Below the pieces are notes generated by a model. It had not been told where the DNA came from, made no database searches, and was given only the letters and a program-made list of their open reading frames with translations. Shown here in pieces: positions 3,602-63,094 of a stretch of 64,000 bases of DNA (position 1 is its first letter; every line of letters begins with the position of its first letter). The DNA comes from Octopus vulgaris (Eukaryota), in NCBI GenBank assembly GCA_951406725.2, contig OX597820.1, positions 2,356,001 through 2,420,000 of the forward strand. Reading direction: 5' to 3'. Position numbers and translations under genes: made by a program.

Positions 3602-3971
3602 TAAAATATTATTGGTGAATTGAAGAAATGGAGCTGAACGCAGATTGAACAGAAATCGTTTTATTTCATTTTACACGTGTTTCGAAAGGCAAAATTTACC
3701 AAAGTCCGATTGAATCGGATTTTGGTAAATTGTGCCTTTCGAAACACGTGTAGAATGAAATAAAACGATTTCTGTTCAATCTGCGTTCAGCTCCATTTCT
3801 TCAATTCACCAATAATATTTTAATTTCAATTATCCGCACCAACGCACGGTTGCAACACCATATGGTTGTACCTCCAACCGTGCTGTTTACTGCTGTGATT
3901 TTTGCTACCAAGGTATCGGTTAAACTTTTGATTAATCTACTACAAGATTATTCATCTTTCTATTTCACATA
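3602..3971 (+). mobile_element. Palindromic PLE derivative (same family as 11741) in (TA)n
   Basis: Palindrome 3602-3822 centred at 3712. Shares gaagaaatggagctgaacg and the tail with 11741. Keeps GAAAcacgtgTA but has no CTGAnGA. Confidence 0.82.
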
Positions 3972-6945
3972 ATATATATATATATATATATATATATATA
4001 TATATATATATATACATACATAGTCCAATGACTCGAAAAAGTAAAACATAAAGGTTGTATTTTAGAAACCCATTTAAACACCAGCTTTTCTTTCATTCCT
4101 CATGGCTCGGGAGCACACCTATGCGCATGCTCAATTTCGAACGTCGCAGAATTTATTACATCCTGCCAGTTTATTACTGTCGACAGACTTCAATAGTGAT
4201 CGATGTCATTTACGAATATATGGAGAAAGCTCGCTAAAATAGCGAACAACGTTTAGCATGTGAAATGTGGGAAAATTGCCGATCAGTTGATTAATCTGCC
4301 TTGAATAACCTCTGCTCTATCTGTCACGAAGTGAGTGGTGAGGTTTTTACTGAACACTTGCCCCGGGAAAAATATCAATATAGGTGTGTGCGTATGTCTG
4401 TATTAAATATGCCTGTATGTAGGTGTATATATATATATACACTCTCCAAGCGATCGTGGGGAGGACGTAGATCAGTGTGTGCATGCGATAATAGGCAAAT
4501 ACCAAATATTTAAAAAAAAACATGAAAAAGAACCACAAAAGTCAATAGGGCGCTGGTCTTTTCCCTTTTTCCGACGAAGAGCCATGCTCGGAACGTCATT
4601 TTTCAATTCCGTTTCTCCATCTAAAAATTTTAGCAAGCCTCATTCTAATATATTCGGTGTTCGTCCAATTGAATTTTGTTACTGTTTCTTGTTTGGTTTT
4701 TTTTTTCGAATTTGTATGCACATATTATATATATAGAGAGAGAGAGGGGGGAAACAGACGGACAGACAGACAGACAGACAGACAGATAGATAGATAGATA
4801 GATAGATAGATAGATAGATAGATAGATAGATAGATAGATAGATAGATAGATAGATAGATAGATATGTGTGTATACATATATTTGTTATATACACGTGAGC
4901 GCACACGTTCATATCTATATATATAGTCTAATTCATAAGAATTTTAAAATGTTAACGTTTCCGCCAGCCCCTCGCCGCCTATAACGTGTAAATATTAGGT
5001 CAAAAACCCCCTCGGTTGGAAAAAACCGAATGCTTCACGTATAGAAAGCCATAAATATGTTTTATGCCTTCAAAGATCCAATGGATGTATCACAGTAACT
5101 ACTTTGAGTGTGTGATTGTATATTTTCTTCTCATATCTTTCTAATGAATGTAAGCATCGCGTCCTCTTTGATGCCACCACAGTGCAGAATACCTGCTTTA
5201 GTGTGCTGTTCTCCTTTACTGCTACTATTGAAAACTCCCTCACTTTTCAGTCATTCTCTTTCCATTTTCTGTGTCTGCATGTGTGTGTGTGTCTGTGCGC
5301 GCATGTGTGCGTGTGCGTTAATTTAAGCATGAATTGAATGGATAACAGTTCGAATTATAGTCATGACTAAATGAAAATTTTTTAAAGATAGAATTCACGG
5401 TAAATGATGTTTTCCCCACTAATACCAGAGAAGGAGGTCTACCACATGCACATGATTTGATTTGGCTGGAAATGAGATTCTTTCTAATCAAATTCTTTCC
5501 ATCATAGCTGTAGAACTTCCAATCTAATGCCGGAAAGAAAGAGTTCTTCAGTATTGTTAAATGTCAGAGGTTCATGGTCTCTGAAGTGTCCACAGCAAAA
5601 ATCACCGTTGCATTGTCGACGTAAAATGTACCAATTTCCAAGATCTTTTATCAGAGACTCAAACAGAGTAGGTTAGATATGTGCGTGTGTGTATATGTAT
5701 GTATGTATCCATGTATGTGTGTATGTATGTAAGTATGTATGTATGTATTTACGCATGTATGTATGTATGTATGTATGTATGTATGTATGTATGTATGTAT
5801 GTATGTATGTATGTATGTATGTATGTATGTATGTATGTATGTATGTATGTATGTATGTATGTATGTATGTATGTATGTATGTATAGTCTTTCCTCACTAG
5901 GTGTCTCTTGGTTTTTGATATCTCTGTTGTATTGGATACAGTGGCTGGCCATAGCCGAAAAAGCGAAAACGCTCAATGTTCTATGATGGAATGAAATCAT
6001 ATGTCCGCGTGGGTGGTAACGCACTGGCCACCTACTGCAAGAGGTGCCCATCTTTGCCACATCTTTGAGTGTGCAAAAGAGTGTAGGTGTTCAGCAGGAC
6101 AGAAAAGCTACATCCATGTTGTTTTAAGAGATCAAGCAATATCTTTGCTCGAAATTGAGTTGCAGCCATCATGTATGTATGTATGTATGTATGTATGTAT
6201 GTATGTATGTATGTATGTATTTACGCAAGTATGTATGTATGTATGTATGTATTTACGTATGTATGTATGTACGTATGTGTATGTATGTATCTATGTGTGT
6301 ATGTGTGTGTGTATGTATGTATGTATGTATGCATGCATGTATGCATGTCTATGTTTATATGTGTGTATATGTGAAAAGAGTTGTAATTTGTTTAAATCAC
6401 GACTGAATATAAAAACCAGTGCTTTAAGCAATAGTTTTCCCAATGCAGTGGAAGAAAGATGAAATATATAAAGCTAACAGAGACATGTTTACCTTAAATC
6501 ATTTAATAATCCGATGTTTCGTGCTAATACGACCTTTTCCATTGAGTGAGGGAAATAGAAGAATACGTCTAACTTCGCCGGAATTTCAAGTATATATTAC
6601 ATAACACTATAGTTGCGTGTGTGTGTGCATATTATATCACACATGGGTGTGTGCACACGCATACACACACACACACACACACACACACATACACACACAC
6701 ACACATGTCCCCCGGATTGCATCTGGTGGCGAGGCTCCAGTGCGGGAGTTCTGAAGTTGTAGGGAACGTGGAGTAATTCCTTAATTACCATTACTTCCGA
6801 AACGGTAGTATCTCTAAGGGTCCCGTCTATGGGCTAAAAAGATTTCCCAGGAGTAGAAGAGGCTCACATCCTTTTTGGCAAATCCGTGGTAAAGGCAGCT
6901 CTTTTAGGAGAATGATAGTTTGACATATAACTTACAGTCAAGACA

Positions 6946-8205
6946 TCAGGTTGGGTAAAAAGTAAATCTTTGAACCATAAAAATACCAAATTTTTGCAGA
7001 GTTTTGAATTTTTAAAACATTTTTTTCTTTTTGCAATTATCTGCTAATACAGACATAGACTTGCCCAAATGCATCAATAAATTAACATTGATATTTTTTT
7101 TTTTTTTCACCGTTGTTACAATCATCTGAAATGGTAATGTCAAAGTGCGATATTCAAACAATTTTGCTATTCAACTTCAAAAAAGGACGTAAAGAAGTTG
7201 AAACTGCTCGCGATATCAACGAAACGTTTTGGTTGGGAAATGACCAGTGAGTGGTCAGCTCAAAAATGGTTTAAACGATTTCGCAGTGGAGACCTGAGCC
7301 TTGAAGATCGTGAGCGGAGTGGATGCCCATCTGTTATCAATGACGGTCAATTAAAGACCGCCATTGAGAAAGATCCGCGTAAAACCACTCGAGGACTGGT
7401 AAAATAACTTCAAGTTAGCCAGAAAGCTGCCTGCAACCAGGATCGGAAAAAGAAAAAAGCTCGACAAATGGGTACCACTCGATTTGAATAAAAATCAGAA
7501 AATGCGCAGATATGAAATTTGCTCGTCGCTTCTTCTCCGTAACCGGACCGATCCATTTCTCGACCGTATTGTAAATTGCGATGAAAAGTGGATTCTGTAC
7601 AATAATAAAAAGCATTCTTCGCATTGGTTGGACCAAAATGAAGCACCGAAAGCCTTTCCTAAACCAGAGCTCTTCAAAAGATTATGGTGACTGTTTGGTG
7701 GTGTCCTGCTGGACTCATCCACTATAACTACATAAAACCCGGAAAAACCATAACTACATAAACATATTCCCATGAAATTGCCAAAATGAATGAAACACTG
7801 TTAATCCTCTGTCCAAAACTGGTCAACAGAAGAGGGCCAGTCATTCTTCATGACAATGCTCGACCACACGTTTCACTTATGATGCTCCAGAAGTTGAGGG
7901 AACTTGGCTACGAAGTTCTTCCCTGCCCAGCCTATTCTGCAGACCTTTCTCCTACCGACTACCACTTTTTGAAGCACCTTGGTGGTTTTCTGCAAGAGAA
8001 GGAGTTCAGAAATCAAACCGATGCTGCAAGCGCGTTCAAAGAGTTCATCAGTTCCAGAACTCCAGATTTTTATGTTACCGGAATAAACAAACTTATAACT
8101 CGTTGGCAAAAATGTGTTGATTGTAATGCTACTTACTTTAACTGTTGAAATATATTGTAATGAATTTCATGTTTGAAAACGTTGCTTACTTTTTACTCAG
8201 CCTGA
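6946..8205 (+). mobile_element. Full-length decayed mariner transposon (Hsmar1/cecropia-like)
   Basis: TIRs tcaggttgggtaaaaagtaa and ttactttttactcagcctga (18/20 match); TA on the right, CA on the left; 1260 bp. Transposase motifs WVP, CDEKW, HDNARPH and YSADLSPTDYHF. Confidence 0.93.
7131..8148 (+). pseudogene. mariner DD34D transposase pseudogene
   Basis: Starts MVMSKCDIQTILLFNFKKGRKEVETARDINE and is split over ORFs 7198, 7484 and 7786 by frameshifts and stops. Confidence 0.9.
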
Positions 8206-62243: not shown

Positions 62244-62930
62244 TGCAAAATGGGACAAGAACGCAAAACATCCAGGTCTTTCGGAGTTTTCTTTCCTCAG
62301 TCAAGTACCAGATTATCTTTGCAATTTCGGTTGTTTATACTCGAGATTGCTCCAATCTGGCCAGCCCCAAGGAAAAACTAAGCTAAGAACATTAGATTCC
62401 TTGTAAGAAAGCAGCGAATGTATACGAAAACAAGGAAGGAAAACAATGGAGAAGGTTACACAAATACAAATAACAGGACACAACAACAGGTGTCTTTCGA
62501 CTAAGGACGCATCAAATTAAGCTGGCGTGTGTGGAAGTAAAGCCTTACGGCAGAGATACAAGATTTCACAGGTACGGGGAAGAATGTAGATGTTGCACGG
62601 ACAGCGGCCGAACCAAGAAAGAAAGGCCAGGCTTGGCCGAACACCGGTCACGTGGGGAGAGAAGAGAGAGATAGGTGGAGGGATAGAAGAAATAAGGAGG
62701 TGCGAGAAAAAAATGACAGGGACACAGTGAAGTGAAAAGAGGATGGAAAGTGAGCATGAAGAGGAGGCAATTAAATATAAGAGAGGGGGAACGAAAGAAG
62801 GAAGAGTGGAAGGAACGAAGTAAACGTAAAAGGGCTGATAGAAAGAAGGAAAGAATAAAAGAATAGAGTCGTACAAGATTTAGATAAATATATACTTACA
62901 TATAAGAGACCAAAGTGTACGTACGCCGCT
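62244..62930. mobile_element. TA-flanked interspersed repeat, same family as 34100-34345
   Basis: Shared caaaatgggacaagaacgcaaaacatccag terminus and gattgctccaatct..gccagccccaaggaaaaac; class not established. Confidence 0.65.
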
Positions 62931-63024
62931 ATATATATATATATATATATATATATATATATATACAAATGGACACGTGTGTTCGGTACCTATTTACAAC
63001 TGCATAAATATTCATTAATTAGCG

Positions 63025-63094
63025 ATCTCGCTGACGATCTAGAGATTCCAAATTAGCTTATTTGGCAATTAATAGAGGAACTCGAGTTCAGGAT
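63025..63094 (+). ncRNA. Degenerate hammerhead motif
   Basis: atctcg-CTGACGA-tcta..taga-GGAA-ctcgag-TT-caggat. GAAA has become GGAA and stem I has a mismatch; lies just downstream of (TA)n. Confidence 0.5.

Follow-up and report, generated by a model that had tools for sequence, protein, structure and literature searches.

Hammerhead motifs of the window

The window analyzed here is a 64,000-nucleotide (nt) stretch of the Octopus vulgaris genome (assembly GCA_951406725.2, contig OX597820.1, forward-strand positions 2,356,001 to 2,420,000); coordinates below count from its first letter. The genome comprises 2.8 Gb in 227 contigs, and the window is rich in microsatellites. A preliminary description had noted ten hammerhead-like ribozyme motifs in it and read them as tiny cassettes of Penelope-like elements (PLEs) embedded in (TA)n repeats. 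We consider it highly probable that the motifs are hammerhead sequences in the terminal repeats of several PLE families, with eight of the ten lying in autonomous Hydra-like elements or in units that lack an open reading frame (ORF) and likely use the same kind of enzyme, and that the copies arose by the insertion route proposed below.

A type I hammerhead-like motif lies on the given strand at all ten sites, and its lowest coordinate agrees with the listed position to within 2 bases. Eight motifs have type I order with all core bases (C3-A9, G12-A15.1, U16.1, and H17), and seven keep the core together with stems I and II, with C3 at 11433, 11873, 14512, 46067, and 47573 on the minus strand and at 11949 and 50279 on the plus strand. 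The motif at 11382-11439 (minus) has an intact core, an extra base before stem II, a 6-nt stem III palindrome, and a predicted cut after 11388. That at 14439-14518 (minus) also has an intact core, with a 10-nt palindrome and a predicted cut after 14445; it lacks the G10.1-C11.1 pair, which is missing from the alignment of its family as well. The compact motif at 46029-46075 (minus) has its predicted cut after 46038. Although all ten motifs are present, they represent only eight insertions: those at 11794-11879 (minus; predicted cut after 11800) and 11943-12028 (plus; 55-nt stem II domain, 8-nt palindrome, predicted cut after 12022) are two arms of one insertion, as are those at 47494-47579 (minus; predicted cut after 47500) and 50273-50358 (plus; predicted cut after 50352). 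The remaining three are damaged: a decayed minimal hammerhead of an old family at 39624-39659 (minus) has lost C3, the motif at 45852-45895 (minus) has a broken stem II closing pair and one broken stem I pair, and at 63025-63094 (plus) GGAA replaces GAAA, with loss of A13. In all three families (39623, 45854, and 63031), most copies have an intact form. Two decayed motifs 297 nt apart (21165 and 20868, minus strand) were absent from the ten first listed.

Our strict search descriptor required every core base, both stem I and stem II, and a stem III that was either palindromic or paired; local dinucleotide shuffles and reversed sequence served as controls. The window gave six matches, compared to none in each of 60 shuffles and none in the reversed window, a hit rate above that of shuffled sequence, as the preliminary description had anticipated. 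A slightly looser stem II threshold adds motif 14512, for seven matches; allowing one core change gave nine, compared to a mean of 0.52 in 25 shuffles. Rfam had no hammerhead family at gathering score in the window, nor any hammerhead in the best 150 of 384 matches at E values up to 5, and the folding z-scores of most single motifs were unremarkable.

Covariation of the stems among copies, also expected at the outset, was found in 18 related motifs (the 11949 and 50279 families and their kin). Pairing held in 91.7% of cells, and 9 of 21 pairs had changed on both sides, a level reached in 0 of 500 shuffles; slid controls gave 37 to 53%. The G10.1-C11.1 closing pair was G-C in 12 of the 18 motifs and G-U in the other 6.

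The description of the motifs as lying in short inserts beside (TA)n holds for the (TA)n association, but three motif sites depart from it. The 47449-50553 element is a 3.1-kb insertion with reverse transcriptase (RT) and endonuclease sequence, motif 39623 lies outside (TA)n (nearest arrays 330 and 445 nt away), and motif 63031 has (TA)n on its 5′ side only.

Abundance in the genome

We sampled the genome as 100 stretches of 10 kb taken at 25-Mb steps on 28 contigs (1 Mb in total). The strict descriptor matched this sample 32 times, compared to 1, 0, 1, and 0 times in four shuffles and once in the reversed sample; low-scoring matches were kept, and a few may be due to chance. The density of 32 per Mb (22 to 45, Poisson 95%) corresponds to about 90,000 intact cores genome-wide (61,000 to 126,000). 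At 109 per Mb, the window is about 3.4-fold denser than the sample. Hence, the very large reservoir suggested from the window exists, but the window's density overstates the genome mean. We met no genome-wide hammerhead count for octopus in the literature, although subscription papers or preprint supplements may hold one. For comparison, Schistosoma has about 2,000 minimal motifs. Figures given for other animals are more than 6,000 motifs in Acropora, about 5,000 in Mytilus, and up to 120,000 retrozyme copies in axolotl (PMC7229834).

The 32 sample matches fell into 22 clusters, in support of many lineages. The 11949 and 50279 families are related to each other (61% alike over 273 nt). Stem III was a perfect palindrome in 27 of the 32, again as proposed. 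Enrichment of (TA)n flanks was borne out on the 3′ side, where (TA)6 or longer lay within 300 nt of 22 of 31 matches (baseline, 17.5%; p = 8e-11); the 5′ side had no such excess (9 of 31; baseline, 18.2%; p = 0.10).

Autonomous Hydra-like elements

The link to PLEs suggested by the preliminary description is supported. From 150 matches of an RT protein search, we chose 20 loci with long frames; 17 of these had a strict hammerhead downstream, 190 to 1,420 nt behind the frame, and in one more a different ORF had been picked.

In the window, 47449-50553 is a head-to-head insertion of such an autonomous element with (TA)n on both sides. It has inverted arms of 1165 nt (47448-48612 and 49240-50404) and a tail (50405-50553); the hammerheads at 47494 and 50273 lie on the tail-less and the tail-bearing arm, respectively. 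Broken frames for RT and, at the C terminus, for a GIY-YIG-like endonuclease (47780-49320, minus) correspond to residues 288 to 775 of a 775-aa family protein, with 96 to 99% identity, and the endonuclease part of the same frame recurs on the tail-bearing arm (49242-50072, plus). At locus L217 the RT and the GIY-YIG endonuclease are encoded in a single 775-aa frame (L217:2296-4620), and a GT...AG intron-like stretch of about 110 nt ends 3 nt before its ATG. These elements have a Penelope-type layout, with a terminal repeat in partial tandem, an inverted 5′ copy, and a tail at one end.

The Pfam RVT_1 match of the window frame is weak (E = 0.0016, below the cutoff), and its relatives are alignable; the single one assigned to a species comes from Argonauta. 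Pfam gave no GIY-YIG match on the element frame, and the endonuclease call therefore rests on motifs: the element protein has RW(K) and DKT motifs and a C-terminal endonuclease in which the conserved E and N are flanked by CxxC and CxH. The hammerhead and the choice of (TA)n as insertion site are further Hydra traits. We rejected the Naiad clade, since the endonuclease is C-terminal rather than N-terminal and the hammerheads are canonical in order.

Three other insertions in the window belong to such elements or their kin. At 11743-12236 (plus), between (TA)n arrays, lies a 5′-clipped fold-back copy of an autonomous Hydra-like sister family, with a palindrome at 11736-12085 and a tail reaching 12236; the motifs at 11794 and 11943 lie on its inverted and tail-bearing arms, respectively. 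Among the 30 best copies of this family, 8 run back into the endonuclease frame, and both the 5′ ends and the fold-back centers differ between copies. A fold-back insertion at 3603-3971 (plus; palindrome at 3602-3822, followed by an unpaired tail) belongs to a sister family, with 75% identity to 11915-12236 over 250 nt. Each of its arms holds just the 3′ half of a hammerhead; an intact family member is present at L170. Finally, the 87 nt at 45999-46085 (minus) form the extreme 3′ part of a member of an autonomous Hydra-like family, in which the 46067 motif is found 1.2 kb past a Hydra-like endonuclease (locus L115 and, within the sample, L150). Of the ten motifs, five thus come from autonomous elements whose 5′ ends vary, as 5′-clipped or inverted ends, and for these a movement of cassettes as units is not supported.

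Ends of the copies

Three sets of loci were unbiased: the 1-Mb sample and the pattern matches of the 46067 family and of the 14512-family tail end. All 30 copies compared in the 11949 family stay alignable as far as +207 to +214, counted from the predicted cut; the query stops there, and (TA)n comes next. An inverted arm, present in 17 of the 30, stops at +64 to +66. For the 46067 family, we read the ends of the first 30 of 215 exact pattern matches. Eighteen stop at a short site and 12 at a long site, and 20 of the 30 have an inverted partner. A fixed 5′ end had appeared in this family; it was an artifact of TA letters in the query and disappeared in the pattern-picked set.

In no family do the 3′ ends fall at the predicted cut; they lie 29 to 227 nt downstream of it, and some 5′ ends pass the upstream predicted cut. 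Both fixed sites used by the copy ends are downstream of that cut, in agreement with published reverse-transcription starts of Penelope elements, and the ends are therefore probably not set by the ribozyme. Ribozyme cleavage as the event that sets the ends is unsupported on both counts. Wrap-around copies starting 9 to 29 nt after the cut (4 of 9) are too few to weigh.

ORF-less units

Retrozyme-like units without an ORF, suspected in the preliminary description, do exist: motifs 14512, 11433, and 63031 belong to units of about 450, 530, and 490 nt, respectively. The copy at 11087-11686 (minus), between two (TA)n arrays, has an inverted arm (11530-11682), and its tail lies at 11087. Partial copies occur at 14218-14544 (minus, between (TA)n arrays) and at 62966-63255 (plus), the latter with the damaged hammerhead. 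A fold-back with a tail at 52999-53288 (plus; fold-back, 52999-53204) is a relative of the 11087-11686 family (70% over 181 nt) that is clipped before the hammerhead. An old tandem pair of a 298-nt unit lies at 20690-21240 (minus), with decayed hammerheads at 21124-21171 and 20827-20874.

These units wrap from tail to head, such that copies reaching far 5′ run into their own tail. The tail is repeated at 430 to 459 nt in 13 of 25 loci of the 14512 family, at 503 to 545 nt in 6 of 20 loci of the 11433 family, and at 481 to 500 nt in 4 of 20 loci of the 63031 family; the old 21165 family has a period of 298 to 329 nt in 6 of 25 loci. No upstream tail repeat was found in 30 copies of the autonomous 11949 family. 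We also looked for a 30-nt pattern spanning the end of the 14512-family tail, which the genome contains 23 times without mismatch. All 23 continue along the 457-nt unit and 19 lead into a recognizable ribozyme core, while none leads into an ORF within the mapped stretch. Even the longest of the 23 copies covers about 1.6 units, and two complete ribozymes never occur in one copy. On doubled units, the longest ATG frame is 37 to 69 codons.

The units share the tails, inverted arms, and (TA)n flanks of the autonomous families, and a GT...AG stretch begins within their tail, resembling the stretch that precedes the autonomous element's ATG. Because they bear this Penelope-type insertion signature, they are likely dependent elements, which speaks against the earlier suggestion that some replicate independently. 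Like retrozymes, they are non-coding, a few hundred bases long, and furnished with a single type I hammerhead. Retrozymes are arranged in tandem, with complete hammerheads in two or more successive units; this arrangement was found in 0 of the 23 copies of the 450-nt unit, and the 20 loci of the 530-nt family included one two-unit array. For this reason we file the units as non-autonomous PLE derivatives. Among the sequencing runs listed as matching the unit sequence, none was on record as RNA. Contigs of three runs, which we guess to be of RNA, cover parts of the 450-nt unit, with no joint skipping the intron-like stretch among those listed; a go-back joint is uninformative on circles because it was placed at an arbitrary unit border.

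Predicted folding and cleavage

Stem III is predicted to have 0 to 4 pairs in the monomer and 4 to 10 in the dimer. A double-hammerhead dimer is the predicted minimum for motifs 11949 and 50279, lies within 1.3 to 2.4 kcal/mol per strand of the minimum for 46067, 11433, and 14512, and is 4 to 13 kcal/mol per strand from it for damaged copies. The motifs are thus predicted to cleave mainly as dimers. Dimer action and low activity of PLE hammerheads have been published (PMC4209133; PMC6765202).

A proposed insertion route and its alternatives

In the route we propose, a (TA)n array would be cut on its two strands by the GIY-YIG endonuclease of the element. The two ends so formed would then each prime reverse transcription on the RNA of the element, starting at either of two fixed positions inside it, downstream of the ribozyme, with the stretch between these positions forming the tail. 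The two complementary DNAs would stop early at variable points and be joined, leaving a 5′-clipped copy that often carries an inverted arm. ORF-less units, which keep the terminal repeat, the tail, and the intron-like stretch and run into the next ribozyme, may borrow the enzyme in trans, and the ribozymes would cut mainly as dimers via the palindromic stem III. Most genomic copies would be silent passengers that decay. The ribozyme would be carried by even the shortest insertions because it is only 40 to 230 nt from the start sites, and its nearness to them would account for the many tiny ribozyme-bearing inserts. The sequences themselves show the motifs, their covariation, their linkage to RT, the fixed 3′ ends, the variable 5′ ends, and the wrap-around units; the enzyme, priming, trans-mobilization, splicing, and cleavage are steps that we infer for this model.

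Several points weigh against this explanation. The 47449 and 11949 lineages fit Hydra-like PLEs by protein motifs and the published description rather than by an RT tree, and the CxCx5C linker is absent from L217 and L222, which represent these lineages. Parents of the 39623 family (old and not TA-bound) and of the 45854 family, a repeat-family 3′ end stopping at (TA)n at 45690-45960 (minus), were not found. There was no autonomous partner of the three ORF-less families among the two autonomous families compared, and the units lacked similarity to the 3′ regions behind other endonuclease matches. The covariation statistics ignore relatedness, use rows chosen by the same descriptor, and cover one lineage (11949/50279), and the locus sets other than the unbiased ones consist of top-scoring loci, biased toward query-like copies. 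Published experiments found poor in vitro cleavage by PLE hammerheads, dimers included (PMC4209133), and insertion in vitro that did not need the ribozyme (PMC11167929).

The ORF-less units might instead be true retrozymes, whose multimers are cut and ligated to circles of 300 to 540 nt that template insertion. We regard this as possible but doubtful. It would explain the tail-to-head wrap at fixed periods, and at least 3 of the 23 copies of the 450-nt unit do read back past the upstream predicted cut; the two-unit array of the 530-nt family (L255), the 298-nt tandem in the window with its two motifs, and the modest stability of the circular folds (z, -1.5 to -2.4) are also consistent with it. 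However, the copies of the 450-nt unit stop short of two whole ribozymes, whereas the retrozymes described in the literature form tandem arrays whose hammerheads are canonical (PMC7229834). A linear read-through transcript of a partial tandem gives the same layout, and autonomous copies, too, carry two ribozymes.

At the other extreme, all short elements could be clipped ends of autonomous elements, with no separate non-autonomous families. Such a history does hold for five of the ten motifs, and the 46067 family seemed parentless in most loci before L115 and L150; three families, however, lead from the tail back into the ribozyme within about 180 nt and not into an ORF, and their doubled units have only the short frames given above. 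With the 23 of 23 unbiased matches contradicting it for the 450-nt family, we hold this explanation to be improbable. Least probable is that the fold-backs are DNA transposons resembling miniature inverted-repeat transposable elements (MITEs), with the motifs as chance matches in hairpin-rich, AT-rich DNA. The inverted arms are indeed near-perfect, and neither Rfam nor most single-motif z-scores single out a hammerhead. Yet the fold-back centers vary from copy to copy while the outer ends are fixed and unequal, and the shuffle controls (none in 60 for the window, 0 to 1 per Mb for the sample) together with the linkage of the motifs to RT refute this interpretation. We retain terminal-repeat hammerheads of Hydra-like PLEs and their non-autonomous derivatives as the best explanation.

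Relation to known systems

These families are Hydra-like Penelope elements and their non-autonomous derivatives, a known kind. The Hydra clade has been described as (TA)n-targeting and hammerhead-bearing, with a C-terminal endonuclease (Craig et al. 2021, PMC8557442). The elements here share with it the single frame of RT followed by GIY-YIG, the RW and DKT motifs, the CxxC and CxH around E and N, a hammerhead located close to the 3′ end and having a palindromic stem III, the use of (TA)n, the 5′ clipping, the inverted arm, and the tail. They differ from the published account in the 55-nt stem II domain, in tails of 70 to 150 nt rather than the 30 to 40 bp described, and in the presence of many families within one genome. 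Hydra-1_Obim of Octopus bimaculoides combines a (TA)n preference and a hammerhead with an intact CxCx5C linker (PMC8557442 supplement), and the clade description ties this linker to (TA)n targeting (PMC8557442). The linker was present in 9 of 10 aligned relatives of the element protein (the tenth is truncated) and degraded in the L150 parent of 46067; unlike these relatives and Hydra-1_Obim, the 47449 and 11949 lineages of the window lack it, which is why we name them only Hydra-like. This linker-less lineage (L217:2296-4620 and L222; 47780-50072 in the window) still sits in (TA)n, against linker-directed targeting, and could serve as a test of the idea that a zinc linker directs such targeting.

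Like the minimal and short-stem-III hammerheads known from PLE terminal repeats (Cervera and de la Pena 2014, PMC4209133; PMC6765202), those found here have type I order, a palindromic stem III, predicted dimer action, an extra base before stem II in some cases, and diversity within one genome, while the palindromes are longer (6 to 11 nt) and many families have long stem II domains. With the purified protein of Poseidon from Anolis, reverse transcription begins at a pair of internal sites enclosing the tail, and both target strands are extended (Frangieh et al. 2024, PMC11167929). The copies here would resemble it in these respects and in having ends that are not fixed by the ribozyme cut. 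Poseidon belongs to another clade, in which the ribozyme overlaps the ORF start; here, the ribozyme lies about 330 nt ahead of the ORF and 200 to 1,200 nt behind the stop.

Metazoan retrozymes have been derived from PLE terminal repeats (Li, Clavereau, and Pollet, 2026 preprint, 10.64898/2026.07.22.740005). In common with metazoan non-LTR (non-long terminal repeat) retrozymes, the ORF-less units are non-coding, low in GC, and a few hundred bases long, carry one type I hammerhead apiece, and have a proposed PLE origin and mobilization (Cervera and de la Pena 2020, PMC7229834; 10.64898/2026.07.22.740005). Unlike those retrozymes, they have units of 298 to 545 nt that are dispersed, mostly as copies of less than 1.6 units, with PLE-type hammerheads, an intron-like stretch, a tail, an inverted arm, and (TA)n targeting. 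Non-autonomous Chlamys elements of green algae, e.g., MRC1, are also ORF-less PLE derivatives with terminal repeats and head-to-tail copies (PMC8557442), although most of those described there have no canonical hammerheads, and they resemble their autonomous partners at the 3′ end, a likeness that was not found here.

Already published are hammerhead-bearing Hydra elements inserted in (TA)n of octopus, hammerheads of the dimer type, and the view of retrozymes as derived from Penelope elements. This genome adds scale and, within one species, a natural series from full elements to ORF-less units. The tail, inverted arm, and (TA)n targeting of the units make testable the proposal that PLE enzymes mobilize animal retrozymes. 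Young families (98% mean identity) whose predicted minimum is the dimer fold would be good substrates for work on PLE hammerhead function. Such fold-backs might be classified by mistake as MITEs or as hairpins of microRNAs.

A more ambitious reading, which we offer tentatively and think unlikely as a whole, is that this genome contains some 100,000 hammerheads with intact sequence, spread over dozens of families, together with protein-free, intron-bearing PLE derivatives that cut, circularize, and are copied into (TA)n by Hydra-like enzymes, and a high-copy hammerhead with its strands in S-G-C order. If true, this would provide insertion-level evidence on how animal retrozymes arise and move, and the S-G-C order would be a non-circularly permuted one so far described from metatranscriptomes.

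Other observations

Hammerhead-like motifs in S-G-C order were found at 34577-34633 (plus) and 62294-62350 (minus), with a damaged copy within 34098-34342 (minus). The motif forms the 3′ end of a (TA)n-inserting family with 12 insertions per Mb. Stems I and III covary, and there is no clear stem II. An S-G-C descriptor matched the 1-Mb sample 6 times, compared to 0 to 1 times in five shuffles, and a second, unrelated S-G-C family is present at L151 and L190. Type-SGC hammerheads were reported from RefSeq, metagenome, and metatranscriptome searches, and reportedly from no genome of a known organism (PMC10085705).

At 45690-46100, two unrelated hammerhead-bearing ends are stacked in series around one (TA)n array, and similar stacking of elements is frequent at other loci (L005, L030, and L272). 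Further decayed remnants of minimal hammerhead-like motifs lie at 4567-4601 (plus) and at about 32430-32490. Sub-threshold microRNA matches occur at 11865-11957 and 53029-53176.

A TNFR cysteine-rich-domain exon at 9758-10939 (plus) indicates that part of the window is probably intronic. Two possible further exons lie at 21860-22162 and 40652-41020 (both plus), one with a transmembrane-like stretch. If the three exons belong to one gene, every motif within it on the sense strand is part of a fold-back, and the four insertions that are not paired lie antisense to it; these are few cases.

The remaining features are fragments of other sequences. A diverged piece of the 3′ end of 18S ribosomal RNA with the adjoining spacer (53313-53840, minus) follows a (TA)n array and a fold-back element. 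A tandemly duplicated fragment with a 179-nt period (54105-54697, minus) represents a different GIY-YIG endonuclease type that is common in the sample loci. A weak DDE_Tnp_1_7 fragment lies at 2724-3218 (plus), and a broken mariner-like transposase was recognized by eye at about 7130-8150 (plus), where the tested piece had no Pfam match.

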